Position numbers and translations under genes: made by a program. From an uncultured Spirochaetota bacterium (GTDB lineage: Bacteria > Spirochaetota > Spirochaetia > SZUA-6 > Fen-1364): a stretch of 64,000 bases of DNA. The DNA lies in NCBI GenBank assembly GCA_963820525.1, contig CAWGAA010000001.1, positions 160,001 to 224,000 on the forward strand. The letters run 5' to 3'. Positions 44,214-62,481 of the stretch are shown here, piece by piece; the stretch's first letter is position 1; every line of letters starts with the position of its first letter. The notes beneath the pieces were generated by a model. That model did no database searches. It saw only the letters and a program-made list of their open reading frames with translations, and was not told where the DNA came from.

Positions 44214-45721
44214 CTATTTGTTCGATTCTTGAATCCGCTCCACAGTGATCGGATCTCCCGCAGCCTCTTCGAACCCGTCGACGGTGAGCAGGACGGGAGA
44301 GAGAGTCAGGGTCTCGATAGCGCGATCGAAAACGCGCTTTCTTCCCGGCTGCACGAGGAAGCTCTTTGATTCGGCGGGCAGGCCCCGGGCATCGAAGAGC
44401 CGAATGCTCAGGATCCGATGTCCCTCGATGGAGAACACGACGAACGCGCCGGAGCGTGCCTGGGCTCCCGCAGCCCAGATGAGCCGCTGCCCGAGAAAGG
44501 TGATCACCAGGCCGTCCGTGCTCTGATACGTTCCTTCAAGATCCGGGGGGGCAAGAGTCACCGGCAGGGAATCCCGCGTGAGGTATCGACGGGCCACATC
44601 ATCGGTGAGCTTCTGATACACGGCGCTGCTGGAGTCTCCCAGATCGCCGCCCTGGATGGCGATTTCGAGGCTGCTGGTCGAAACGACGCGGATGGAGAAA
44701 GTGCGGGACACCGTATGGACCGCTTCATTCTCCGTGAACACGAGAAGGCGGTCATAGACGGTGCGGATGCTTCCGCCCCAGACGTACATTTCCTCTGTAT
44801 CACCGAGGTACCGTGTTATACGACGGCGATCCGGCTCGAAGCTGACGATCTCCAGGGCTCGGACTTTCTGGGATGGAGCGGTGGGCTCGCTGAGTTCCAC
44901 CCATGGGCCCTGGAGGAACTGCTCGAAGCTTTCCACGTTGGTGCCGGTGAAGAGCCGCGCGAGCTTATCCTGTTCCACTTTTTCGCGCGGGACCTTCTGC
45001 GGGTCCCCGCGACATAGCGATTCTCCGCGTAGCTCCAGGAATAGGGTATCCGAATGAGGTCCATGACATTCATTGAATCGGGGTCCTGGGAATAGGCATC
45101 GATGGGAAAACTGTCGGCGTTCTTCTGCCCCAGCGTGTAGGATTCCGGCCGATCGCTCTGCTCGATCACGATATCGTCGGCGACGATGCTGCACACTTCG
45201 CGCATGACAAGACCGAGGCCGGTGGCGGGAGAGGCTCTCTTGAAAACATTGAGGGTGAGCTTCCCGTGGGTGTTCATCCCGCCAACGACAATCTCCAGGC
45301 CATGATCGCCCACCAGGTCCTTCACGTACATGCTGAAGACCCGCGAACTCGTCGAGGCAGTCGGCGATTCCCAGCTCTGGTAGTAGTAGCGTCCCTTGGC
45401 CGAGTCGCAGTCCGCCAGAATGACCCGAACGGGGGAATCCACCTCGTCGCGCTTCTTTACCGCGATTACCTGCTCGGGGTCCGCGTCCTGATCGAGGTTC
45501 ACGTCAATGACGGACAGGAGCTTGTCCCCGCGATCCAGCGTGATCCTCGGGTGGACTTCCCCCTGCTCGGAGCCCGCATCTGCAGCCGCCCCGATCTGGC
45601 CGGCGGCAACCGTTTGCGGTGCGCTGCTGGGGATGATGAGGGCCGGCTCCGCCCTATGGGACGGGAGACACGCCGACAGGCAGGCCGCCAGGATGAGAAG
45701 AGGGATGTGAAGAGGCTTCAT
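44214..45721 (-). CDS. Pallilysin-related adhesin-like lipoprotein; frameshift at about 45001-45008
   Basis: LAACLSAC lipobox and DVNLDQDADPEQVI motif. ORFs 44816..45784 and 44214..45194 join if one base is added to a short homopolymer. Confidence 0.65.
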
Positions 45722-47860: not shown

Positions 47861-49426
47861 TTACCTGGCGCCTCTCGCGGGGCCGGCGCCGCGCTTGCCG
47901 GATGAACGGCGCTGCGGCGCGGCACGCTTCTTTGAAGCGGTCTTGCCTGCGGCCCGAGTCCGCGGAACGCGCGTAGCCGGCGGACTCGCGTCCTGCCGCG
48001 GGGCGCTTTCTTTTGCGGCGTGCGTCGTGCTGGGCCGGGCGTCTGCAACCCTCAACTCCCTGCTTTTCCCATTCTCCGAGCGGAACGGAAAGCTCTGTCC
48101 GAGCACGTCGTCGTTTTCGCCGGAGAGCTTCGGGAAACGGTCAGCCTTCAGCACGTCGAAGCCCAGTCTGCTCTCCTTGAGGCGGAACCGCGCCAGGGAG
48201 CGGGCGTTGCGCCGGGTGATGAGGCTGAAGGTCCCGTCGGTCTCATTGAGGAAGACCTCGCCGCCGGCCCGCAGGGTCACGGGCGCGGTCATGAGCGGCT
48301 CATTGTCAACGTAGAGGAGAAACCGCACGGCTCTCCCCGATGCAAGCCTCCGTGCGGAGAAGATGGCCAGGAGGACGAGGGCCGCGAGCACCGCCAGAGC
48401 GACGAATGCGAGCCACCAGTAGTTCTCGACGACGCTTCTCACCTCGAGCGTGACGCCGACCTCTGACGGGTTGAAGCGTTCTCCAGAGAGGAACGAGAAG
48501 GAGAGGGTGCCGCTGGTTTTTCCCGCCGGCAAATCATTCGGGAAGCGGACGGGGACTCTCACGTTTGTGGTTCCGGAAGCCGCCACCGTGATGGGCAAGG
48601 ACGAAGGCAGGATGTTGGCGGCCGAGCGGGAGCCGAGGCGCGCCTCGATGCCGGCGATGGAAACCGATACCTCATGCGAGTAGCCCTCGCTCTTCAGAGC
48701 GAAGGAAAGCGAGCTGGATCCCCCCGAGCCGACCGGCGCGACGCTCACCCCGCCCGTAAGCGTCACCGAGCCCAGGAGGTTTTCCGTCTGCGCCTTCAAG
48801 CTCTCCACCGAAGGGTTTCCTGAAATCTGCGCAAAAGAGCCGGAGAGTTGCTGGGCAAGCTCTCTCACCTCGGCTTCCACGCCAATGCCGAGGATCTCGA
48901 TCTTCCAACCCTCTTTCTGGATGGTCTTGATGTTTGCCAGGAACTCGTGGTTGAACTTCCCGCTCGGTGAATAGTACTTGCTTGTGGGAGGAGCTTCCTG
49001 TCTGCCATCAGTCATCATGAGGACGAATTTTTTTCTTGAATCATCGGAAAGCGTTGCAATTTGCTCCTTCATGGCATCAAGTGCATTTCCAATATCTGTA
49101 AATCTTCCATTAGCTCTAATTTTGTCAATGATTGCTTTGATTTTTTGAATATCGGTCTGGTTTTTAACGATTTGAGAAACAATGACGTTCGCTTTCCCGT
49201 AGAAGCCAATGATGATGAGATTGTCTCCGGGAATGAGGACATCGTCGAGCAGCCACGTATTGACGTAGCGTTTGACTGAATCGATCTTTCCGTCCTCCGC
49301 CATCGAGAGGGATTTGTCTACGGCAAGGATGATGTCGATGTTCTCGGTTCGTTTGTCGGCGAATGCCGGGAGTGACAGGACGAAGAGCAGCGCCAGAGCG
49401 AGAAGGGAACTTTTCCGCGTTTGCAT
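47861..49426 (-). CDS. Membrane-anchored vWA-domain protein
   Basis: Signal peptide, MIDAS DKSLS...T...MTDG, Ig-like region, one TM helix and a basic C-terminal tail. Confidence 0.85.
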   Translation of the reverse strand: MQTRKSSLLALALLFVLSLPAFADKRTENIDIILAVDKSLSMAEDGKIDSVKRYVNTWLLDDVLIPGDNLIIIGFYGKANVIVSQIVKNQTDIQKIKAIIDKIRANGRFTDIGNALDAMKEQIATLSDDSRKKFVLMMTDGRQEAPPTSKYYSPSGKFNHEFLANIKTIQKEGWKIEILGIGVEAEVRELAQQLSGSFAQISGNPSVESLKAQTENLLGSVTLTGGVSVAPVGSGGSSSLSFALKSEGYSHEVSVSIAGIEARLGSRSAANILPSSLPITVAASGTTNVRVPVRFPNDLPAGKTSGTLSFSFLSGERFNPSEVGVTLEVRSVVENYWWLAFVALAVLAALVLLAIFSARRLASGRAVRFLLYVDNEPLMTAPVTLRAGGEVFLNETDGTFSLITRRNARSLARFRLKESRLGFDVLKADRFPKLSGENDDVLGQSFPFRSENGKSRELRVADARPSTTHAAKESAPRQDASPPATRVPRTRAAGKTASKKRAAPQRRSSGKRGAGPARGAR

Positions 49427-49570
49427 ACAGCCCCCCATCTTCGTATACTTATGTTTGTAGCATGCACCATATCGGGATAAATTGGAAGAGTAAAAAAAAA
49501 ATGTGCTTGAAAGGGTAGGGGTTTTGTGGTTTACTAGGAAAGCGAGAATACACGAGTAAAGGAGAATGGT

Positions 49571-51601
49571 ATGGCAGGTATTGACCTTCCCAAAAGCCCG
49601 AATGTGTTCCACCCGGAGAAACCGAGTGCAGTCGGGTCCCGCAACTCCCTCGCCCAGGAGTTCAGGGATCAGCAGGCTGAGGTCGACCTCCTTCTCAGCG
49701 AAGAAGTAGATAAAGTACTGAATCATCTCACCTCGAAACTACCAAAGGAAGTCGCCGAAAAACTCGACGTCATGGGTGGGTTGAAGGAGAAGCTGTACAA
49801 CTACTTCAACCAGAACTACCAGAACATGTTCAACCGCTACATCGTCACCACGGAAGACGAAATGGTGAAGAAGGTGCGGAACTTCATCGACAAGGAAGAG
49901 ATGAAGGCCCTCGCCCGCTACACTCCCAAGGAGATCGCGGCCCTCCTGGATCAGGTGGGCGGCATCGACAAGTTCAACACGGGTGAAATCGAGAAATCGA
50001 TTGTCAACATGTTCGGCCACTTGCAGGGCCACATCCAGCGCGGCGTCAACGATCTGGAGAACCTCACCAACAGCCTCCTCCGCCAGAAGACCGACGTCGG
50101 CGCGTTCATCAGGGGCGAGAACGCGTACTCCATCGTGAAGTGCTCCTTCAAGGACAACGCGATAAAGCCCAAGACCGTCACTGACGTGAAGCTCTCGGTC
50201 AACATCCTCGACTCCGAGCTCATCAGCCCCATCTTCCACTATCAGGTCACCGTGGAGTTCCTGATCAAGGACCTCATCTCCAAGAACATCATGGACCTGA
50301 TCGACAAGGAGATCGAGAAGCTCAAGGACCAGCTGGTGGACGAGGGCAAGGAAGAGCTCTCCGACGGCGAGATCCTCTTCGAAAAGATGGAGAGGGTGGA
50401 GAAGTTCACCTCGGACGACAAGGACGACCCCAAGTCCAAGAGGTACAGCTTCTTCGCCAAGAGCCTGATGGACAAGATCGAGGGTCTGCGCGCCGAGATC
50501 GATCCCGAGGAATACGATCCGGTCAACGTTCGCGAGAACCTGAAAAAGATCATCGACCTTGAGAACATCAGGAACAGGGGCTTCAACACGGCCATCAACT
50601 CCATCACCTCCATCCTCGACACCTCCAAGATGGGCTACCAGCACGTGGAGAACCTCAAGAACGCCCGCGAGCTGGTGCTGAGGGAGTATGAGGACACGGA
50701 TGCCAGCCAGGTGCCCGATGAGAGGTACTCCATCCGGCTGAAGTATTACGACCAGGCCCAGCTGCTGGAGGAGCGCAAGTCCTACGACGTTCAGGCCAAG
50801 AGCTTCGAGGTCGAGGTCCAGCACCTGTGGGACGTGCTCGAGATGGTCTATGAAGACTCCAAGTTCATGAAGGGCGTGGTCGATTTCAGCGACCTGGCCA
50901 GGAGAATGAAGGGAAAGATCAAGAGGAGGATCAAGGCCAAGACGGGAGATCCCCTCTACGAAGACATCGAGAAGTCGTGGGACGAGATCATCTTCGTCCG
51001 GCCGGGAGACACCGAGGTCGAGCGGATGAACCGCACCTACATCCCCGAAAAGGACAAGATCAAGAGACGGATCATCCTCATGAGGGACAAGCTGCAGAAG
51101 CTGTACGGCTACCGCTACCCGATCCAGCGCCGGGTCATGGAAGATCGGCTTACCTATCTCGAGAAGGATTTCCTGAAGTTCGAATACATGATCAACCCGT
51201 ACCACATCCAGCCCGGCCTTCTGCTCGACGTGGACATCACCTCGATCAAGAGGAAGAAGGCGACCCTTGACGGAATGTCCAACGTGCTCAACGAGTTCCT
51301 CTATGGAGTGTCGAAGGGATTCCAGGATGCGGCTTTCGCTTCCTTCTCCCGCAGGCGCTCCACGGTCAGGGCGGACATTGCCCAGTCCTTTGCCGGCACT
51401 TCCCCCGGGCAGGAGCAGCCAACCGAGGGCGCGCCCTCCAAGGGCTCCGAGTACCTCGACATGATCAATGTCCCCGCGGCGGCGGAGTCAAAGGCACCCG
51501 CCCGCACTCCGGGCGTCGTGGACGTGTCCAAGCGAGGACGGAGACCCGCCAGGAGGGGCAGGCCCCGGAGGGGCGGTGACGCGGGCTTGAGAGAAATCTA
51601 A
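49571..51601 (+). CDS. cfpA: Cytoplasmic filament protein A
   Basis: Recognisable N-terminus [26 protein letters not shown]; 676 aa, coiled-coil rich; C-terminal [10 protein letters not shown]. Confidence 0.92.
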
Positions 51602-51619
51602 GTCCTCTCCATGAGATAG

Positions 51620-51657
51620 ATGGTGACCTTCTCACGGAGGTCACCATTTTCATTTTT
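51620..51657 (+). terminator. Rho-independent terminator after cfpA
   Basis: ATGGTGACCTTC-tcac-GGAGGTCACCAT followed by TTTCATTTTT. Confidence 0.75.
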
Positions 51658-51692: not shown

Positions 51693-52727
51693 ATGCAGGA
51701 ACAACTCCATCTGTTTGACGGGCTCAGCACACGCGATGGGTTCAACAAGTCTCTCAAGCACTTCAAGTTCATCGCGAATGTCATTGGCGAGTTCGAGAGA
51801 AACCGCAATCTTGCGGAAGTCCTGAGTGACAGCCTGGCGGAAAAGTCGATCGAGCCTGACCAGGTTCTTCCCACGATCTGCGCCATCCTCGTGGACAAAT
51901 ACCACTACGCGTACCGCTCGTACAACCTCGAGGAGAACTTCGAGGATTTCGACGCGGTAGCGGCGGAGGCGAGCAAGTGGAAGGCCGTGGACCTCGTCGT
52001 GGCCTACTTCCACCCCGAGCTCGGCGTCGTGGCGGTCAATCCCAAGAACCCTGCCCACTGGAGCGTGGTCCAGAGCCTGAAGAAGAACGAGCTGGTCACC
52101 GTTTTTGCCGGCGCGTTCCAGAAAACGACCACAAGCGATACGTACATGCAGGCGATCGAGCTCCTCCTCTCCATGATCCAGGGGGGGAAGGTCCGCACCC
52201 CCGCGGCGCTCACCAAGGGCCGCTTCGTGCAGAGGGCACCCTCCAAGGCGCCGGCTCCCGCGGCCGCACCCAGGCGCGTGGGCCGTCCAAAGTCAGCCAG
52301 AGCGGCTTCGGCTGCTCCCGCCGGCGCGGCACCTGCCGCGGCCTCGGTGGCAGCGGCCGCGGCCGCCGCTCCCGCAGCCGCTCCATCCGGCGCGCGCAAG
52401 AAGATGACTCCCATGTACGGGATCGTCGTGACGAACGAGCTGTTCCACAACGGGAACGTGGAGGCCTGGAAAAAGATCATCCAGAGCTATACGACGAAAT
52501 ACCCCGGATTGGAGGTGTACGTCTTCTACGAGGGCGAGCGAATCCACGACATCAACACCCTCTTCAAGTGGGGGAAGGTGAAGCACGGGAGCGCCATCAT
52601 GATCTCCGTGGCGGGAGACGATATCAGGGACGTCGCCAAGCTCAACCGTTACCTGAAACAGGGAGCGAGCCATATGTTCGAGGCTTTCCTGAAGGCTCCC
52701 GTCAACGCGATTCTCAATCTCTTTTGA
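51693..52727 (+). CDS. Hypothetical protein: N-terminal domain, Ala/Pro linker and C-terminal HPr-like domain
   Basis: C-terminal IVVTNELFH...VKHGSAIMISVAGDD...L matches the HPr pattern by eye; long Ala/Pro linker. Confidence 0.6.
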   Translation: MQEQLHLFDGLSTRDGFNKSLKHFKFIANVIGEFERNRNLAEVLSDSLAEKSIEPDQVLPTICAILVDKYHYAYRSYNLEENFEDFDAVAAEASKWKAVDLVVAYFHPELGVVAVNPKNPAHWSVVQSLKKNELVTVFAGAFQKTTTSDTYMQAIELLLSMIQGGKVRTPAALTKGRFVQRAPSKAPAPAAAPRRVGRPKSARAASAAPAGAAPAAASVAAAAAAAPAAAPSGARKKMTPMYGIVVTNELFHNGNVEAWKKIIQSYTTKYPGLEVYVFYEGERIHDINTLFKWGKVKHGSAIMISVAGDDIRDVAKLNRYLKQGASHMFEAFLKAPVNAILNLF

Positions 52728-52830
52728 GCGGCGTTTGCCTTTGGCAGGCCGCTGATTTAGCGCGGCGTACGGAACAGGTAAGCCGCCGCTGATACAAGAG
52801 CGGCGTTTGCCTCCGGCAAGCCGCCGCTGA
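52726..52830. repeat. Three tandem REP-like imperfect palindromes
   Basis: GAGCGGCGTTTGCCT at 52726 and 52798; AAGCCGCCGCTGA twice; unit 3 folds as AGCGGCG.TTTGCC-tcc-GGCAAG.CGCCGCT. Confidence 0.75.
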
Positions 52831-52850: not shown

Positions 52851-55492
52851 ATGAAGAAGAACATCTATTTCTTCGCCCAGGGCGAAGCGAACACCAAGCC
52901 CCAGGTCCTCGAGAGGATCGGCATCCGCGGGCGTCTGGCCATGGAGCTTGCCGACCTCGATCTTCCCATACTCCCCGGTTTCATCATCGACGCGGACGTC
53001 GCCTCCCACCTCAAGGACTACAAGATCCGGCCGGCCCTCGAGCCGTGGTTCGACAAGCTGGCCAAGCTCACCGGCAAGAGCTTCGGTGACGCGGACAATC
53101 CCATGCTGGTGAAGATCGTCATCAGCCCCAACCTCGTGATCGCCACCTATCCGACCCTCCACAACTACGGCCTTACCGAAAAGACCCTCAACGGGTTCAA
53201 CGCCTTCGTCGGGGAAAACTTCGGCCTGCACGAGCTGCAGTTTCTCACCCGGGGAAACCTCGAGATCGAGCTCGCTATAGCCGAGATCGAGGGGCGAGAG
53301 AAGGAGGCCAAGGCCCTGAAGCAGTCGATCAAGCAGCTGGATGCCGACATGGATTCCGAGATGGACGCGAAACGAAGGAGGGAGTGCGTCACCAAGTACA
53401 TGGCAATGCTTCCCGAAGGCTTCTTCGCGGACTCGTTCTCCCAGCTGGAGATCGCGCTCAACAGGATCAGCCATCTTCTTTCCATAAACGACCAGAACCA
53501 GGAAGACACGGCGCTCCTCATCCAGCCCATGGTTTACGGAAACTATGGAAAGGATTCCGCATACGGGCAGTTCTACACCCGAAACATCGTCACCGGAGAC
53601 AAGCAGATTCAAGGCGAGTTCTTCCAGAGCAAGTTCAACGCCATCGGCGCCTCCGGGTCAGAGATCGAAAAGATCGCGAAGAACTACTTCAACGATCTGG
53701 AACGGATAGCCCACAGGGTGGAGGACCATTTCAAGGAGATCCGCTCCATCCGCTTCACCGTCGAAAACAAGAGGCTGTGGCTCATCGATCAGCGCTCCGT
53801 GATGACCAAGTCCACGCAGTCGGACATCCGCACCCTTCTGGACCTGCACTCCAGAAAGATCGTGAACGACGAGTACGTCATCAACCAGATAAAGCCGGGA
53901 CAGCTGAACGAGATCCTGCACCCCATCATCAACCTCTCCTCGGTGCAGAAAATGAAGAACCTCTCCGGCGGCATCGCGGGTGCCCCGGGGGCGGCCATCG
54001 GACGGGTGTTCTTCAGCACGGCCGGGCTTCTGGACGCATTCAAGAGCGCTCAAAAACTGGGCCAGGACACCAAGCTCATCCTCTGCCTGCCCGCAAGCTT
54101 CGCGGAGGACGTCAAGGCGATCGAGGTCGCCACGGGGTCCTCTCCACGGAAGGCGGCTATTCGGCCCACGCCTCCGTCGTTGCGCGCCAGTACGGGAAGG
54201 TGTCGTTTGTGAAGCCGGACATGAAGATCCGCGGCAACCGCGCTACCGTGGGGGACACCGTGATCAAGGAGGGTGATTACCTCACCCTGAACGTCCCCTT
54301 CTACGGAATTCCCTCCGTCTACCTCGGCAAGGCCGAGCTCATCGAGCCGGATCCCGAGGAGTCGGGGATGCTCGACTTCCTGAAGATCGTCCAGAAGTTC
54401 GTGACGCGCTTCCACGTGAGGACCAATGCCGACACTCCCCGGGACGCGGCTCTCGCGCGGACATTCGGGGCCCGCGGCATCGGGCTGTGCCGCACCGAGC
54501 ACATGTTCTTCGCCGAAAAACGGATCAACGTTTTCCGCGAGATGGTGATCTCCGGCTCCCTGGAGGAGAGGAAAAAGGCCCTGGCCAAGCTGCAGCCCAT
54601 GCAGCAGGCGGACTTCTACAAGCTGTTCAAGATCATGGAGGGAAACCCCGTCATCATACGGCTGCTCGACGCCCCGCTCCACGAGTTCCTGCCCCATAAC
54701 GAAACGGAGATGGAGCAGTTCATGAGCTACCTCAACGCGGGCAAGAAGGCCGACGCCCGGCTGCCCGAGAGGGAGGTGCGGGCGCGCTGCGATGCCCTGC
54801 ACGAGTTCAACCCGATGCTGGGCCACAGGGGATGCCGAATCGCCGTCTCGTATCCCGAGATCTACGAAATGCAGGTCCGCGGTATCTTCGAGGCCGTCTA
54901 TACGCTGAAAAAGGAAGGGATCAAGGTCCAGCCCGAGATCATGATCCCGATCATCATGAACGAAAACGAGCTGAAGCTCATCATCTTCGGCAAAAAGATC
55001 GAGGGCAAGCACATCCGCGGCCTCGTGGACGTCGAGAAGGACGTTCGGGACAGCTTCAAGGCCAGGCCAGCGGAGTACATGATCGGGACCATGGTCGAGC
55101 TTCCCGCCGCGGCGCTGGGAGCCGACCACCTGTCGCGATACGCCCAGTTCTTCTCCTTCGGGACCAACGATCTCACCCAGACCACGATCGGGCTCTCTCG
55201 CGACGACTTCAACACCTTCATGCCGGACTACACGCAGTTCGACCTTCTCGAGGGAAACCCCTTCCAGCTGCTCAATCCCCAGGTGAAAGAGCTGATCCAG
55301 ATGGCGGTCAAGCGCGGCCGGATGTCCCGGCCGGACCTCGAGGTGGGTCTCTGCGGCGAGCATGGGGCCATCCCGGAGAACGTGCGTTTCTGCATCGACG
55401 CGGGGCTCGATTACGTTTCCTGTTCCCCGTACTCCGTGCCCATCGCGAACCTGGCCATCGCCCAGATCATGATCGAGAAAGCGGCGAAATAG
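52851..55492 (+). CDS. ppdK: Pyruvate phosphate dikinase homologue (divergent N-terminal domain); frameshift in G4 at 54134-54137
   Basis: QPMVYGN, GGYSAHASVVARQYG, GIGLCRTEHMF, IRLLD, NPMLGHRGCR, FSFGTNDLTQ, GLCGEHG. Adding one G joins ORFs 52851..54212 and 53384..55492. Confidence 0.88.
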
Positions 55493-55516: not shown

Positions 55517-55548
55517 ATAAAAAAGGGGGCGAAAGCCCCCTTTTTTAT
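55517..55548. terminator. Bidirectional rho-independent terminator
   Basis: ATAAAAAAGGGGGC-GAAA-GCCCCCTTTTTTAT between convergent genes. Confidence 0.92.
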
Positions 55549-55583: not shown

Positions 55584-56135
55584 CTACTTGGCCCAGATGC
55601 TGAAGCGATTCAGGCACTTCTCGACGAGGCCGGCAACCTTGTCGGCGTCGTCCTTGGGAACATTCGCTTCCTTGTTGAGAGTGGTCTCGAAAAAGCTCTT
55701 GATGGTTTCCATGACGTCGGCAAGGTTGTAGAAGAGGAAAGCGAAGTTGATTCCCGACGGCTTGATGATCGTGAAGGATCCATAGGTGAGAATGGGCTCC
55801 TTGCTCACCATCACCTTGGTCTGGTTCTTCGAGGTGAGGATCTCCAGCTCCGAGAAGCGGTGGGGGATCTGCTCCTTTGACTGCCTGCGGAACGGCTCAA
55901 GGTGCTTCTGGGCATAATTGGGAGGCTCGCTGAGGACGAAGAGCTTGTTGCCGTCGGTCTGGAAGGTGAGGCCCTCCTCGGAAAGGTAGATGCTCTTCAC
56001 CCCATTGTACGCAACGACTTCATACTTCGAATATGCCGAGTTCTCGTCGAGGAAAGAGGAGATGATGTATCCCCCCTCCTTGGGCAGCTTGTTCTCGCCG
56101 TAGGCCTGAAATAAATCGAGGGCTTTCGTTGCCAT
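55584..56135 (-). CDS. Hypothetical protein
   Basis: AGGAGG RBS, TTGAAT...TGaTATAAT promoter and coding-like codon usage; no recognisable motif. Confidence 0.8.
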   Translation of the reverse strand: MATKALDLFQAYGENKLPKEGGYIISSFLDENSAYSKYEVVAYNGVKSIYLSEEGLTFQTDGNKLFVLSEPPNYAQKHLEPFRRQSKEQIPHRFSELEILTSKNQTKVMVSKEPILTYGSFTIIKPSGINFAFLFYNLADVMETIKSFFETTLNKEANVPKDDADKVAGLVEKCLNRFSIWAK

Positions 56136-58276: not shown

Positions 58277-59716
58277 ATGGAATCTCGTGACATTTTCTCC
58301 AACATCTCGCCTCTGGACCACCGCTACTCGCTGTCCGACCCCGACCTGTTCCACGAGCTGCAGGGGTACTTGAGCGAGGATGCGGCGGTGCGTGCCTGCG
58401 TGCGGGTGGAGGTCGCCCTCCTGAAGGCGCTCCTTTCCCGGGACGCCGTGCTGGCAAAGCGCGTGGACCTCATTTCCTCGCTTGACGCGATCGGGCAATC
58501 CATCAGCCCCGAGGACGTCTACGCCGAGGAGGAGAAGACCCGGCACAACATCCGCGCCCTGGTGAACGTGCTGAAGGCCAGGGTTGCCGAGGAGGCGAAA
58601 CCCCTCGTTCACCTCGGCGCGACTTCCGTGGATATCCTCGATACGGCCGCCTCGATCCGCTACAGGGACGCGGTTCGCCGCGTGATCCTCCCGCTCCTCC
58701 TCGACCTGGAAGAGGAGCTGATTGCCCGAGCCAGGCAGGAGGTGGACACGCCGCAGATCGGCCGCACGCATGGACAGCATGCCGTGCCCATCACCTTCGG
58801 ATTCGCCATGTCCCTGTACGTTTCCCGGCTGGGCAAGTCCATCCAGCGCCTCGAAGCGAAGGCGGGTAACCTCCGGGGCAAGCTCTCCGGCGCCGTCGGC
58901 GCCTACAACGCCACCTCGCTCCTGGTCAAGGATCCCGAGGAGTTGGAGCGCGTATTCCTCGCAGGCCTGGGCCTCGAGCCGTCGGAGACCTCGACGCAGC
59001 TGGTGGAGCCCGAGCACCTGCTCGAGCTGCTCTTGGAGATGAATACGGCCTTCGGAATCATCGCCAACCTCGCGGACGATCTTCGAAACCTCCAGAGGAG
59101 CGAGATCGGCGAAGTGCGGGAGGAGTTTGCCGAGAGCCAGGTCGGCTCATCCACGATGCCGCAGAAGCGAAATCCGTGGAACTCCGAGCATGTGAAGAGC
59201 CTGTGGAAGGCGTTTTTCCCCAGAGCCATGACCTTTTTCATGGATCAGATATCGGAGCACCAGCGGGACCTCACCAATTCGGCGTCGTCGCGGTTCGTTG
59301 CCGACTACATGGCGGGATTCGCCTGTGCGGTCTCGCGCGCCCGAACCGTCGTGCGCTCCCTCTCCGTCAACCGCACCCGCATGGCGGAGAACCTCGCAAA
59401 AAGCGGAGACTTGGTGTTCTCCGAGCCTCTCTACGTCCTTCTAGCCCGTGGAGGAGTCCCGGACGCTCACGAGCGGATCCGCAGGGCAACTCTTCGAGCC
59501 GAAAAAAGCGGGGAGCGGCTGCGGGATGTGCTTCGCCAGGATGCCGAGCTCTGGCGGATCCTCGATAGAAACCTCTCCGAGACAATCGGGATGAACGCGG
59601 AGGGCTTCCTCTCCGATCCGTCGAAGTACACGGGGCGCGCGGCTGCCAAGGCCGCTGCAATCGCCGAGAGGTATTCGACCCTGGTGGATGCCCTTCGCAA
59701 GGAGTTGAAGTCATGA
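58277..59716 (+). CDS. purB: Adenylosuccinate lyase
   Basis: ISPLDHRY, HLGATSVD, GRTHGQHA, GSSTMPQKRNP. Confidence 0.96.
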   Translation: MESRDIFSNISPLDHRYSLSDPDLFHELQGYLSEDAAVRACVRVEVALLKALLSRDAVLAKRVDLISSLDAIGQSISPEDVYAEEEKTRHNIRALVNVLKARVAEEAKPLVHLGATSVDILDTAASIRYRDAVRRVILPLLLDLEEELIARARQEVDTPQIGRTHGQHAVPITFGFAMSLYVSRLGKSIQRLEAKAGNLRGKLSGAVGAYNATSLLVKDPEELERVFLAGLGLEPSETSTQLVEPEHLLELLLEMNTAFGIIANLADDLRNLQRSEIGEVREEFAESQVGSSTMPQKRNPWNSEHVKSLWKAFFPRAMTFFMDQISEHQRDLTNSASSRFVADYMAGFACAVSRARTVVRSLSVNRTRMAENLAKSGDLVFSEPLYVLLARGGVPDAHERIRRATLRAEKSGERLRDVLRQDAELWRILDRNLSETIGMNAEGFLSDPSKYTGRAAAKAAAIAERYSTLVDALRKELKS

Positions 59717-60943
59717 AACTCGTGGTGATCGGGGCTCAGTGGGGAGATGAGGGCAAGGGGAAGATCGTCGATTTCCTCGCCCAGAACGCTGATCTCGTCC
59801 TTCGTTTCTCCGGCGGAGCGAACGCCGGCCATACCATCGTCAAAGGCGGGCAGACCTTCAAGCTCCACCTTCTTCCTTCCGGCATCGTCTATCCGGACAA
59901 GACCGTCATCCTGGGCATCGGCATGGTTATCGACCCACAGGCGCTCTTCGATGAGCTGGCCATGATCGAGAAGTCGGGAATCCGATGGGAGGGGAGGGTG
60001 CTGGTGTCAGACAGGGCTCACATGGTCCTGCCGCGTTACCGGGAGATCGACAAGCAGAAGGATGGGTCGCGCATCACTCCCATCGGGACCACGGGGCGCG
60101 GGATCGGCGTCACCTATGCCCTGAAGGCGGACCGTGACGGGATCCGCGTGGCCGACCTCTACGACTCGAAGGTGTGGGCCCGCATCCCCGCCGGCGACAA
60201 GGCCTACCTGGAACCCTTGAAGGAGAGGCTTCGCCCTATGGTCGTCGACGTCTCGCTGTACCTGGCAAAGAGCGCGGCGCGGCAGATTCTCTTCGAGGGG
60301 GCCCAGGGGACCCTCCTCGACCTTGACTTCGGCACCTATCCCTATGTCTCCTCGGGAATCTCGGCGGCGGCGGGGGCCCCCATCGGTGCGGGGATCGGGC
60401 CCCATGCGATAGACCGCGTCATCGGGGTGTTCAAGGCATACTCGACGCGTGTGGGCAATGGCCCGTTTCCCAGCGAGTTCAAAGAAGAGCGCGACGGAAA
60501 CCTCTGCGATACGGTGCGGGGCATCGGCCAGGAGTACGGGGTTACTACGGGAAGGCCGCGGCGCTGCGGTTACCTGGACCTGGTGGCCCTGCGTTACGCC
60601 TGCCGTTCCAACTCGATCGACTCGCTGGCCCTCACGAAGCTCGACGTGTACGACGGCTTCGACGAGATAAAGGCGTGCATCGCCTATGAGTATGCCGGCA
60701 GTCGTCTCGAGGAGTTCCCCGCCACGCTGGAGGTGCTGGAATGCGCCGCTCCCGTCACCGTGAGCTTCCCCGGCTGGAAGGAGGAGGCCAAGAAAGCGAG
60801 ATCCTACGGCAAGCTTCCCTCGGAGGCCAGAGAGTATATCGCGTTCATCGAGAAGTATGTCGGGGTTCCCGTCTCGATCGTCTCCGTGGGAAGCGAGCGG
60901 GATCAGACCATTGCTCAGGAAGGACCCGTGGACAAGATCCTGA
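59713..60943 (+). CDS. purA: Adenylosuccinate synthetase (reads through into guaA as assembled)
   Basis: GAQWGDEGKGK, GGANAGHT, EGAQG, GVTTGRPRRCG; natural end is probably ...RKDPWTRS* at 60943. Confidence 0.92.
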
Positions 60944-62481
60944 TCCTGGACTTCGGCAGCCAGAGCACGCAGCTCATCGGCAGGCGGGTGCGGCAGCTCG
61001 GGGTCTACAGCGAGATCGTGGCGGGAGATTCGCCCGTCGGTGATATCGACTTCACGGACGCCAAGGGAATCATCCTCTCCGGTTCGCCGTTTTCCGTCTA
61101 CGAGGAGGGAGCCCCCGTCGTGGACCGGGAGATATACTCCAAAGGCCTGCCAGTGCTCGGAATCTGCTATGGGCTTCACAGGCTGGCCACGGACCATGGA
61201 GGCACGGTCTCTTCCCTCGGCCACAAGGAGTACGGGAGGGCCCGCATCGAGCTCAAGGAGAAAACGAAGCTGTTCTCCCGGGTGCCCCGGCGATCCTTCC
61301 TCTCGTGGATGAGCCATGGCGACACGGTGACGGAGACGCCGCCCGGGTTCCGCATCATCGCCACTTCAGAGGCGGGACTGCCCGCCGCTTTCGCGGGAGA
61401 CTCCGGCATGAGCTGGGGAGTGCAGTTTCATCCCGAGGTGAGCCACTGCCAGTACGGCATGGAGGTGCTCGAGGCCTTTGTCCTGGACATCAGCGCGGCA
61501 AAGCCCCAATGGGACATGGAGGCTTTCCTCCGCCGCGAAAGAGAAACGATCAGGATTGCCGTGGGCGGCACCGATGTGGTTCTTCTCATCTCCGGCGGGG
61601 TCGATTCCTCCGTCGTTGCTGCCCTCCTGCTCAAGAGCCTGGACCCTGGCCGTGTACGCCTCCTCTACGTAGACACGGGACTGATGCGAAAGGGCGAATC
61701 GCGGGAGGTGATCGAGAACCTCTCGGGCCTTGGGGCTACGTACGTCACCACGGTGGACGCTTCCGATCGATTCTACAGGACGCTGGCAGGCGTGACCGAA
61801 CCCGAGGAGAAGCGCAGGATAATCGGGGACCTGTTCATCAGGGTTCAGGAAGAGGAGATCCGAAAGACGGGTCTCACCGAGTATTTCCTGGCGCAGGGGA
61901 CCCTCTACACTGACCTCATTGAATCGGGCAGGGGGGTGGGGAAGAAGGCCAATGTGATCAAGACGCATCACAATGTACGCTCCCCCCTCGTCGAAGAGCT
62001 GCGCAGCCGCGGCCGCATCATCGAGCCGCTCTCCACGCTCTACAAGGATGAGGTGAGGAAGCTCGGCTTCACCCTCGGGCTTCAACCCTCCATCGTCTAC
62101 AGACACCCTTTCCCCGGGCCCGGCCTTGCAGTCCGCATCCTGGGTGAAGTGACGCGGGAGAAGTGCGAATTGCTGAGAGAAGCGGATGCGCTTTTCCTTT
62201 CCGAGATCAGGGCCAGGGGGCTGTACGACAAGATCTGGCAGGCATTCTGTGTCCTTTTGCCCGTGAAATCCGTGGGAGTCTCGGGAGACATGAGACGCTA
62301 CGGCCACGTGCTCGCGCTTCGGGCGGTAGCTTCGCTGGACGCTATCACGGCGGACGTTTATCCGTTCCCTATCCAGGACCTTTTGGAGATCTCCTCCCTC
62401 ATCACGAACAGAATCCCGCAGATCGGCAGGGTTGTTTACGACATCTCCAGCAAACCGCCCGCTACGATCGAGTGGGAGTAG
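60928..62481 (+). CDS. guaA: GMP synthase (glutamine-hydrolysing)
   Basis: GTG start after AGGAAGGA; ILDFGSQ, LGICYG, QFHPEV, SGGVDSS, HPFPGPGL, KPPATIEWE. Confidence 0.96.
   Translation: MDKILILDFGSQSTQLIGRRVRQLGVYSEIVAGDSPVGDIDFTDAKGIILSGSPFSVYEEGAPVVDREIYSKGLPVLGICYGLHRLATDHGGTVSSLGHKEYGRARIELKEKTKLFSRVPRRSFLSWMSHGDTVTETPPGFRIIATSEAGLPAAFAGDSGMSWGVQFHPEVSHCQYGMEVLEAFVLDISAAKPQWDMEAFLRRERETIRIAVGGTDVVLLISGGVDSSVVAALLLKSLDPGRVRLLYVDTGLMRKGESREVIENLSGLGATYVTTVDASDRFYRTLAGVTEPEEKRRIIGDLFIRVQEEEIRKTGLTEYFLAQGTLYTDLIESGRGVGKKANVIKTHHNVRSPLVEELRSRGRIIEPLSTLYKDEVRKLGFTLGLQPSIVYRHPFPGPGLAVRILGEVTREKCELLREADALFLSEIRARGLYDKIWQAFCVLLPVKSVGVSGDMRRYGHVLALRAVASLDAITADVYPFPIQDLLEISSLITNRIPQIGRVVYDISSKPPATIEWE

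Follow-up and report, generated by a model that had tools for sequence, protein, structure and literature searches.

Among described enzymes, pyruvate, phosphate dikinase (PPDK; EC 2.7.9.1; TIGR01828; structures 1DIK/1KBL, 1VBG and 5JVJ/5JVL) is the one from which the gene analysed here descends, a PPDK-like gene that stands third in a conserved operon with cfpA. It lies in a 64,000-nucleotide stretch of DNA (the window) from an uncultured Spirochaetota bacterium (assembly GCA_963820525.1, contig CAWGAA010000001.1, positions 160,001 to 224,000 of the forward strand). PPDK and the PPDK-like protein have in common three colinear domains (an ATP-grasp domain, a swivelling His domain and a TIM barrel for phosphoenolpyruvate (PEP) and pyruvate), the same carrier His and the same PEP/pyruvate residues, with about 48% identity in the PEP domain. 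In the ATP-grasp domain, however, the identity of the window family to PPDK is about 25%, and of eight ATP-site residues only R337 is kept, with Arg in place of K22. Moreover, the family scores 609–661 bits with TIGR01828, the PPDK equivalog model (curated cut-off 843.45 bits), forms a separate clade and is linked to cfpA instead of glycolytic genes. The gene thus descends from PPDK yet falls outside it in two defining respects, the ATP-site residues and the TIGR01828 cut-off.

The same three genes in the same order make up the Treponema loci TP0748-TP0747-TP0746 and TDE0842-TDE0843-TDE0844. G128, a 1.14-Mb single-contig treponeme genome, shares the trio and the residue pattern. Its protein is identical to that of the window at about 48% of positions in the N part and 63% in the C part, and the genome of the window, unlike G128, also encodes a canonical PPDK and a pyruvate kinase. 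In T. pallidum work, TP0746 is assumed to make ATP from PEP, AMP and pyrophosphate (PPi), according to the relevant passages of PMC10013896. We conclude that the PPDK-like gene is functional and belongs to an old PPDK paralogue branch, which includes Treponema TP0746 and TDE0844 (annotated Ppdk). Its label as an ATP-making glycolytic enzyme is probably wrong, because the predicted ATP pocket is rebuilt, the PEP half is kept, and the gene is co-inherited with cfpA and with the gene of a carrier-like protein. Judging from the sequences, we give a probability of about one half to the reading that the product would be a PEP-charged phospho-His protein serving a filament-linked relay or sensor, and not making ATP.

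Two other described systems are useful for comparison. Enzyme I of the phosphotransferase system (PTS), which acts with HPr (PtsI/PtsH, with the EI-Ntr/NPr branch), also combines a PEP-binding TIM barrel with a swivelling phospho-His domain, and the window gene likewise stands beside a gene whose product is predicted to have an HPr fold and a conserved His at the start of helix 1. However, the N domain of the window protein is a modified ATP-grasp and not the helical HPr-binding domain of Enzyme I. It scores 107–108 bits with TIGR01417, in the C-terminal barrel only, against a cut-off of 341.7, and is not a member of that family. The candidate carrier also differs from HPr, as a two-domain 344-aa protein without sequence-level likeness to it. 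VadK (Rv1127c) of mycobacteria is described in the relevant part of a preprint (10.1101/2025.10.30.685616) as a PPDK-derived, autophosphorylating regulatory histidine kinase outside central metabolism. By analogy, a PPDK relative with a reported regulatory role may serve as a precedent for a regulatory phospho-His protein in the cfpA operon. Going by the short NF004531 model, we take VadK to keep the ATP-grasp and His parts and to lack the PEP domain, which is the opposite half to the intact PEP half of the window protein. Our literature search, which did not extend to older cfpA papers that may bear on the operon, found no paper on the altered ATP site or on an HPr-like partner.

Residues are numbered here as in Clostridium symbiosum PPDK, by means of a profile of 31 orthologues aligned to 1dik (profile positions 16–876 to residues 12–873, E = 9.7e-193, HMMER), and what is said of the pocket is derived from alignment to PPDKs of known structure. 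With HMMER, the N part of the window protein aligns to residues 3–423 of maize PPDK (1vbg; E = 2.9e-34), and Pfam PPDK_N matches only aa 271–325, with 27.1 bits against a cut-off of 27. A preliminary description of this DNA, made from the letters and entered under 52851–53830 (inside the codons for aa 1–~340, the ATP-grasp domain), had listed four altered motifs, and the alignments to 1vbg and 1dik bear out every one. LLGGKG is RIGIRG, where K22 corresponds to R26, a conservative change; SVRSG..SMPGMM is KIVISPNLVI-ATY, with R92 changed to V90, S90 to K88 and G101 deleted; DxEFT (aligned as DMEFT) is SIRFT, with S299 for D321 and R301 for E323; and LQTR is IDQR, with D313 for Q335 and R337 kept as R315. 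Further changes, not in that list, are R135 to F131, Q320 to R298, and Q277 to F262 together with loss of the QGED stretch, and G94 and R341 align with S92 and K320. Over the ATP/Mg/phosphate (Pi) set K22, R92, G101, R135, D321, E323, Q335 and R337, with roles as assigned in mutagenesis work on the C. symbiosum enzyme, the window therefore reads R, V, deleted, F, S, R, D and R. In Flaveria PPDK, Arg95 and Glu324 take direct part in ATP binding, as stated in the relevant part of PMC5507339. As predicted from these alignments, the domain is an ATP-grasp without both Mg ligands and without the phosphate binders of the Arg and Gly loop, which has gained the basic residues K88, R298 and R301 plus D313.

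The replacements are widely fixed. K22R, S90K, R92V, G94S, the deletion of G101, Q277F and R341K are found in 48 of 48 intact order-level orthologues, in all of which R135 is F/Y, E323 is R/K and Q335 is D/E, and 19–20 of 20 genes from other families of the phylum have the same replacements. In the combined 68 clade members, E323 is R/K in 67 and Q335 is D/E in 68; the replacements of D321 and R135 vary among relatives (R135 is mostly F/Y over the whole clade), while the other classes are fixed. The ratio of nonsynonymous to synonymous substitution rates (dN/dS; NG86) was calculated for 14 close pairs, two of which have saturated dS in some or all regions. For the ATP-grasp domain it is 0.015–0.12 (13 of the 14 pairs giving a value), for the His domain 0.012–0.13 and for the PEP domain 0.024–0.10. 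Moreover, the 26 former ligand columns have a mean conservation of 0.817 compared with 0.693 domain-wide, a value reached by 55 of 10,000 random column sets, in a test that treats gaps as a state and uses a partly assumed site list. From the above, the nucleotide-binding domain, which had been called eroded in the preliminary description, is remodelled under selection, and the whole protein is under strong purifying selection: erosion does not agree with replacements fixed phylum-wide, low dN/dS and former ligand positions more conserved than the rest of the domain.

Divergence of the ATP-grasp domain, measured against that of the PEP domain, is about 1.5-fold higher in this clade (ratio 1.46–1.56) than in canonical PPDKs (0.98), so some constraint on it has been lost. 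This faster divergence, together with the co-inheritance with cfpA described below, would fit an alternative in which the N domain has no catalytic role and the protein serves chiefly as a structural or scaffold part of the filament ribbon, with the PEP site acting only as a ligand sensor. We give it little credence, since the carrier His and its loop are invariant (68 of 68) and all catalytic residues of the PEP domain are kept, which exceeds the needs of a ligand sensor, and since the partner protein also retains an invariant His.

In the C part, on which Pfam PEP-utilizers_C scores 241.4 bits, the equivalents of His455, R561, R617, E745, N768, D769 and C831 are present in the window, as had been described, and in 68 of 68 clade members. 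The statement that the regulatory Thr of GGxTSH is replaced is right as far as the motif goes (GGMTSH is GGYSAH), but the Thr has become Ser, which is still phosphorylatable, and it is the next Ser that is Ala. The point is moot here because the genome gave no match (0) to a PDRP/DUF299 gene. The residue is Ser or Ala across the clade, and the argument from the regulatory Thr was dropped. The His loop has changed in other ways: position 449 is Glu in 68 of 68 clade sequences, compared with Arg in 21, Thr in 12 and Lys in 5 of 51 canonical ones, and position 452 is Tyr or Phe in 68 of 68. The Glu-bearing loop may be a charge-complementary re-pairing with a more basic, metal-free cleft. The full signature of the family (R26, K88, V90, S92, F262, R298, R/K301, D/E313, K320, E434, Y/F437 in window numbering) is complete in the window and in the public protein P0156.

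Basic residues gained, metal ligands lost and positions still highly conserved, next to an intact PEP half and carrier His, could also point to PEP-driven transfer to another small acceptor in the cationic pocket, such as Pi or a nucleoside mono- or diphosphate. For example, with Pi as the acceptor, PEP + Pi -> pyruvate + PPi would feed a PPi-dependent glycolysis, the PPi source of which is an open problem in other anaerobes (according to the relevant part of PMC8863071), and G128 needs some route from PEP to pyruvate. This alternative is speculative and we regard it as improbable: it leaves the linkage to cfpA and to the HPr-fold protein unexplained, and the gene is also kept by genomes with ordinary pyruvate kinase and PPDK. 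Besides, we know of no small-acceptor activity in the PPDK-like family.

To place the family, we built a FastTree phylogeny of 112 sequences, made up of 14 of the 48 order-level and 20 phylum-level genes, P0156, 26 divergent and 37 canonical database representatives, and 14 canonical genes from relatives. The PPDK-like genes, including P0156, group in a 55-member clade (support 1.0) that contains no canonical PPDK and has a stem length of 0.73 substitutions per site; a distinct, largely spirochaete clade, the check proposed in the preliminary description, is thus what the tree gives. An exhaustive search of representatives returned 62 clusters at E <= 1e-30 and then canonical PPDKs at 25–30% identity, and of 80 loci from a metagenome scan for a sister group, 79 held ordinary PPDKs and only one (L131) was of a sister type. 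With TIGR01828, the intact orthologue L028 scores 661.0 bits, the two halves of the window gene 156.8 and 487.3, and the treponeme-family genes G220 and G128 655.7 and 609.1, compared with 1224.9 for the canonical PPDK of the same genome as the window. The last gene also answers the question of whether the genome has a second, canonical ppdK: it lies on contig 2 of the genome (G000) and encodes 995 aa with all motifs intact. Pyruvate kinase and ordinary PtsI and HPr are encoded elsewhere in the genome. Among 251 phylum genomes, 175 have a TIGR01828 match above the cut-off, and only 5 carriers of the divergent type have a single, sub-threshold match (G128, G170, G215, G178 and G233); a canonical PPDK is kept beside the divergent type in most carrier genomes.

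Genes of the window type are commonly annotated as the glycolytic enzyme PPDK. Relatives of the window gene are named ‘pyruvate, orthophosphate dikinase’ by JGI and, in some cases, ‘putative PEP-binding protein’ by NCBI, and protein names in the wider family are uninformative (‘PEP-utilizing enzyme’). The genome has other genes of the PPDK_N family on contig 1, at 1341720–1342868 and 1843273–1844157, each over two or three frames, and both retain canonical GGK, VRSS and DIEF...LQCR motifs. The canonical PPDK of the genome (contig 2, about 156810–159797 on the minus strand; L012 810..3797) ends with some 80 residues, rich in Ala, Lys and Pro, that resemble histone H1, and the canonical frames of close relatives are similarly long (972–996 aa). 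The PPDK-like gene encodes 965–972 aa in three other families (L122/G091, L130/G082, G057, G130, G071 and G123), owing to an insert of about 90 residues in the N domain, after about residue 165.

The first gene of the operon was assigned as cfpA with NF040882 (1184.7 bits, cut-off 500), and the order is cfpA, the TP0747-like gene and the PPDK-like gene. Of 61 related loci, 52 have cfpA upstream and 59 have the middle gene, with strand and gene order unchanged. The trio is found in 18 of 20 phylum-level loci, the other two having too little upstream flank to contain cfpA, and on the sister-type metagenome contig cfpA is likewise accompanied by a 362-aa gene and the PPDK-like gene. For co-occurrence, we took 251 phylum genomes at least 90% complete and called the divergent gene at E <= 1e-75 (38–55% identity). 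The divergent gene is in 87 genomes and cfpA in 87, with both in 86, each alone in 1 and neither in 163; given the kinship among genomes, these counts are a pattern and not a statistic, and they overstate the support. In 70 of the 86 co-carriers the two genes are adjacent (gap 1.09–1.68 kb); in 1 they are separated by 7 kb, and in 15 they are on separate contigs. Expression data from Treponema exist as well. Array data for T. denticola (Table 5 of PMC3914990) list joint repression of TDE0842 (cfpA), TDE0843 (conserved hypothetical) and TDE0844 (putative pyruvate phosphate dikinase). For T. pallidum, TPANIC_0746 counts among the genes with high expression, cfpA being TPANIC_0748 (relevant part of PMC8525777). 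A cfpA mutant shows chromosome condensation and filamentation and loses virulence, according to the part of PMC3398590 that deals with it.

The middle gene encodes a candidate partner. No match to its 344-aa product was found in local Pfam and NCBIfam, and its nearest ESM Atlas clusters carry PF27497 (TP_0747_N). An AlphaFold2 model built from 45 sequences (predicted local distance difference test, pLDDT, 85.8) starts with a helical N-terminus, followed by two beta-alpha-beta-beta-alpha-beta-alpha domains with a disordered, low-complexity Ala/Pro linker between them. Domain 1 superposes on HPr over the whole HPr length (Z 10.3, root-mean-square deviation 1.9, 79 of 83 residues; range 1.9–2.0 over 79–80 residues), and the 31 best matches are all HPr, Crh or NPr. 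A search independent of Foldseek, over 48,161 chains, gave Z 10.2 for domain 1 with HPr and 6.5 for the next fold. Modelled alone (pLDDT 92.6), domain 2 has HPr as the four best of the 48,161 chains, covering HPr 1–84, with Z of 7.6, 7.2, 7.2 and 7.0 and 6.2 for the next fold, a middling range of 7.0–7.6 that lies about 1 above an unrelated fold.

The His of this protein is in domain 2. His252 stands directly before helix 1 and is invariant in 45 of 45 sequences, and 13 of the 15 positions from V246 to K260 around it are invariant or nearly so in the 45. The motif is also found in G128, G220, G289, G135 and the sister-type metagenome contig. In domain 1, 35 of 45 sequences have an acidic residue (Asp/Glu) instead of His at the equivalent position. 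From the models, the TP0747-like protein is predicted to be a tandem HPr-fold protein and is a candidate partner, encoded directly upstream of the PPDK-like gene. The preliminary description had inferred that the ATP/Pi half-reaction is lost, that the N domain is repurposed for partner binding and that the PPDK annotation may be wrong. This is supported in part, by the missing canonical Mg/ATP/Pi ligands beside an intact PEP half, the score under the equivalog cut-off, the second ppdK, the separate clade and the candidate partner; the loss of the half-reaction and the binding of a partner by the N domain are plausible.

A mechanism can be proposed in which PEP would phosphorylate the carrier His at the C-terminal domain, and the swivel domain, with the invariant Glu in its His loop, would dock on the rebuilt, cationic and metal-free cleft of the N domain. 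There the phosphate would not be used to build ATP from AMP and PPi. It might go on to His252, the invariant residue of the HPr-like partner, or merely be held, in which case the protein would report the PEP/pyruvate state to the CfpA filament system. Overall, this would resemble a PTS Enzyme I/HPr pair on a PPDK chassis, tied to a cytoskeletal ribbon. In its widest form the proposal is tentative, and we hold it to be possible rather than probable: spirochaetes and a few other cfpA-bearing bacteria might have a PEP-driven phosphorelay, in which a PPDK-chassis ‘Enzyme I’ and a tandem HPr-fold carrier couple the PEP/pyruvate state to the CfpA ribbon, and a syphilis-type treponeme would be without a true PPDK.

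Several observations weigh against the reading as a PEP-charged relay or sensor protein that does not make ATP. The protein retains Q240, M242, G254 and R259 of the adenine hinge, as well as R337, and because of this could still bind a nucleotide. On the partner side, besides the middling scores of domain 2, Pfam PTS-HPr matches 0 of 45 family members, hhalign of the family or of its C-domain with 12 genuine HPr sequences gave probabilities of 1.4% and 1.0%, and Foldseek, run on the complete model, found nothing at E <= 0.001, even though its list is headed by HPr chains. The kinship among genomes mentioned above belongs here too. Finally, in G128 the divergent gene is the only PPDK-like gene, and 0 candidates for pyruvate kinase were found there, a gene content that is easier to explain if the enzyme turns PEP to pyruvate at glycolytic rates. 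The G128 match at 812084–813367 (minus strand) agrees with the coordinates of single-nucleotide variants in TP0746 (810772, codon 869; 811414, codon 655) in the relevant part of PMC10013896.

An alternative helped by the gene content of G128 is a still-working PPDK with a re-engineered pocket, in which K88, R298 and R301 replace R92, R135 and the Mg ions and whose kinetics or regulation may differ from those of the canonical copy. We judge it unlikely, if by no means negligible. The hinge and R337, the conservative Arg for K22 and the strong purifying selection on the nucleotide domain all agree with it, and in G128 the divergent gene is the obvious route from PEP to pyruvate. It also agrees with the high expression of the gene in T. 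pallidum and with TP0746 being taken as the glycolytic Ppdk, in the parts of PMC8525777 and PMC10013896 already cited. On the other side, both Mg ligands are swapped for a charge-reversed pair almost throughout the clade; R92 is V/I, the G101 loop is shorter, R135 is mostly F/Y and the QGED stretch is lost, while distant PPDK_N proteins of the same genome retain these motifs. The family is below the curated equivalog cut-off and is kept beside a canonical PPDK in most carrier genomes, and a glycolytic role leaves the tight linkage to cfpA unexplained.

If the clade lacks PPDK chemistry, treponeme metabolic models lose a step from PEP to pyruvate and ATP, foremost for the 1.1-Mb genome without pyruvate kinase or canonical PPDK. 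If the phosphorelay is real, the textbook glycolysis of the syphilis-type treponeme, balanced in ATP and PPi, would need to be redrawn. Independently of PPDK chemistry, the near-perfect co-inheritance offers first candidate regulatory partners for the cytoplasmic filament, the CfpA ribbon being a structure tied to division and chromosome structure.

In the window the PPDK-like gene is split between two frames, a break that was absent from the preliminary description. The frame-1 part ends ...EVATG at 54137 and frame 3 resumes with VLSTEGGYSAH..., and a mechanical list of open reading frames (ORFs) shows a 453-aa ORF (frame 1, to 54212) and an overlapping 702-aa frame. As a result of this -1 frame change, the C-terminal residues named in that description sit in another frame. 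Public contigs were compared with the window over 53600–54700, and both contigs that span the break (2 of 2; X1 and X4) have a fifth G, inserted behind 54133; X1 is otherwise identical to the window over 918 nt, and X4 has 8 differences. Because of this extra G, the frame break is a homopolymer assembly error and not biology. The frame is also unbroken in P0156 (880 aa), which differs from the two parts of the window protein by 3 residues, and 6 of 6 variants of one public contig are at third codon positions in the proper frames, on both sides of the break. In the 61 related loci, the gene is a single frame of 870–890 aa in 48, truncated by contig ends in 7 and frame-broken in 6, of which 5 are from one series of metagenome-assembled genome records.

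A frame change at 54134–54137, with the frame-1 ORF stopping at 54212, and motifs that look eroded are what a decaying gene or pseudogene would show, but we hold this to be very improbable: the extra G of the public contigs, the intact 880-aa protein, the third-position variants and a dN/dS far below 1 all speak against it, and other genes of the assembly are also scattered across frames. The two PPDK_N genes of contig 1 are such cases and suggest many small indel errors in the assembly. A programmed frameshift was considered as well and was ruled out by the single-frame relatives, by the extra G in public contigs and by the 11 relatives inspected, none of which has a G run at the frame junction.

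The features of the locus are collected in Table 1. The strong hairpin after cfpA lies ahead of both downstream genes and might give high cfpA and low downstream expression. The gap between the TP0747-like and PPDK-like genes is 123 nt here, compared with about 20–25 nt in relatives; its spacer folds at -62.5 kcal/mol (z -2.85), and the 25-nt repeat has 2 matches against 0 expected, with no other copy in the window.

Table 1. Coordinates of features in and around the cfpA operon (window positions, or residues of the TP0747-like protein where marked aa).
Feature	Position	Strand	Remarks
Promoter-like site 5' of cfpA	49420..49449	+	Consensus scan, 9/12 matches; weak pattern match only
cfpA, cytoplasmic filament protein A	49571..51601	+	676 aa; first gene of the trio; NCBIfam NF040882 cfpA_ASD
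Terminator-like hairpin right after cfpA	51618..51649	+	14-bp stem, T-rich tail; possibly a partial stop
TP0747-like protein	51693..52727	+	344 aa; middle gene of the trio
Domain 1 of TP0747-like protein	aa 72-166		HPr fold (model)
Domain 2 of TP0747-like protein	aa 236-330		HPr-like (model); His252 in motif NELFHNGNVEAWK
Structured intergenic spacer	52728..52824	+	Two 25-nt GC-rich hairpin repeats (52728-52752, 52800-52824)
PPDK-like gene, frame 1	52851..54137	+	aa 1-429: remodelled ATP-grasp (aa 1-~340), linker, start of swivel domain
Codon R26	52926-52928	+
Codon K88	53112-53114	+
Codon V90	53118-53120	+
Codon R298	53742-53744	+
Codon R301	53751-53753	+
Codon D313	53787-53789	+
Codon R315	53793-53795	+
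GGGG run	54134..54137	+	One G short in the assembly; apparent -1 frame change
PPDK-like gene, frame 3	54137..55492	+	Phospho-His swivel domain and PEP/pyruvate TIM barrel
Carrier His codon (His455 equivalent)	54167-54169	+	Frame 3 of the PPDK-like gene
Symmetric terminator-like hairpin	55519..55545	.	Common to the PPDK-like gene and the convergent downstream gene

Convergent to the PPDK-like gene, a 183-aa protein without Pfam or NCBIfam match is encoded at 55584–56135 (minus strand). It occupies the same place in 42 of the 61 related loci (59–81% identity), and a large TPR protein comes next in 49 of 61. Further downstream, 59713–62481 (plus strand) is a single 922-aa ORF that joins adenylosuccinate synthetase (PurA) with a complete GMP synthase (GATase and GMP_synt_C); in the relative L071 purA stands alone with 409 aa, and the window ORF is either a real fusion or an assembly indel. 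On the other side of the operon, 44214–45194 (minus strand) encodes 326 aa with a beta-barrel domain of the Pallilysin family (PF18663, E = 7.2e-11), which takes its name from a Treponema pallidum protein; the window comes from a free-living spirochaete of wetland or sediment.

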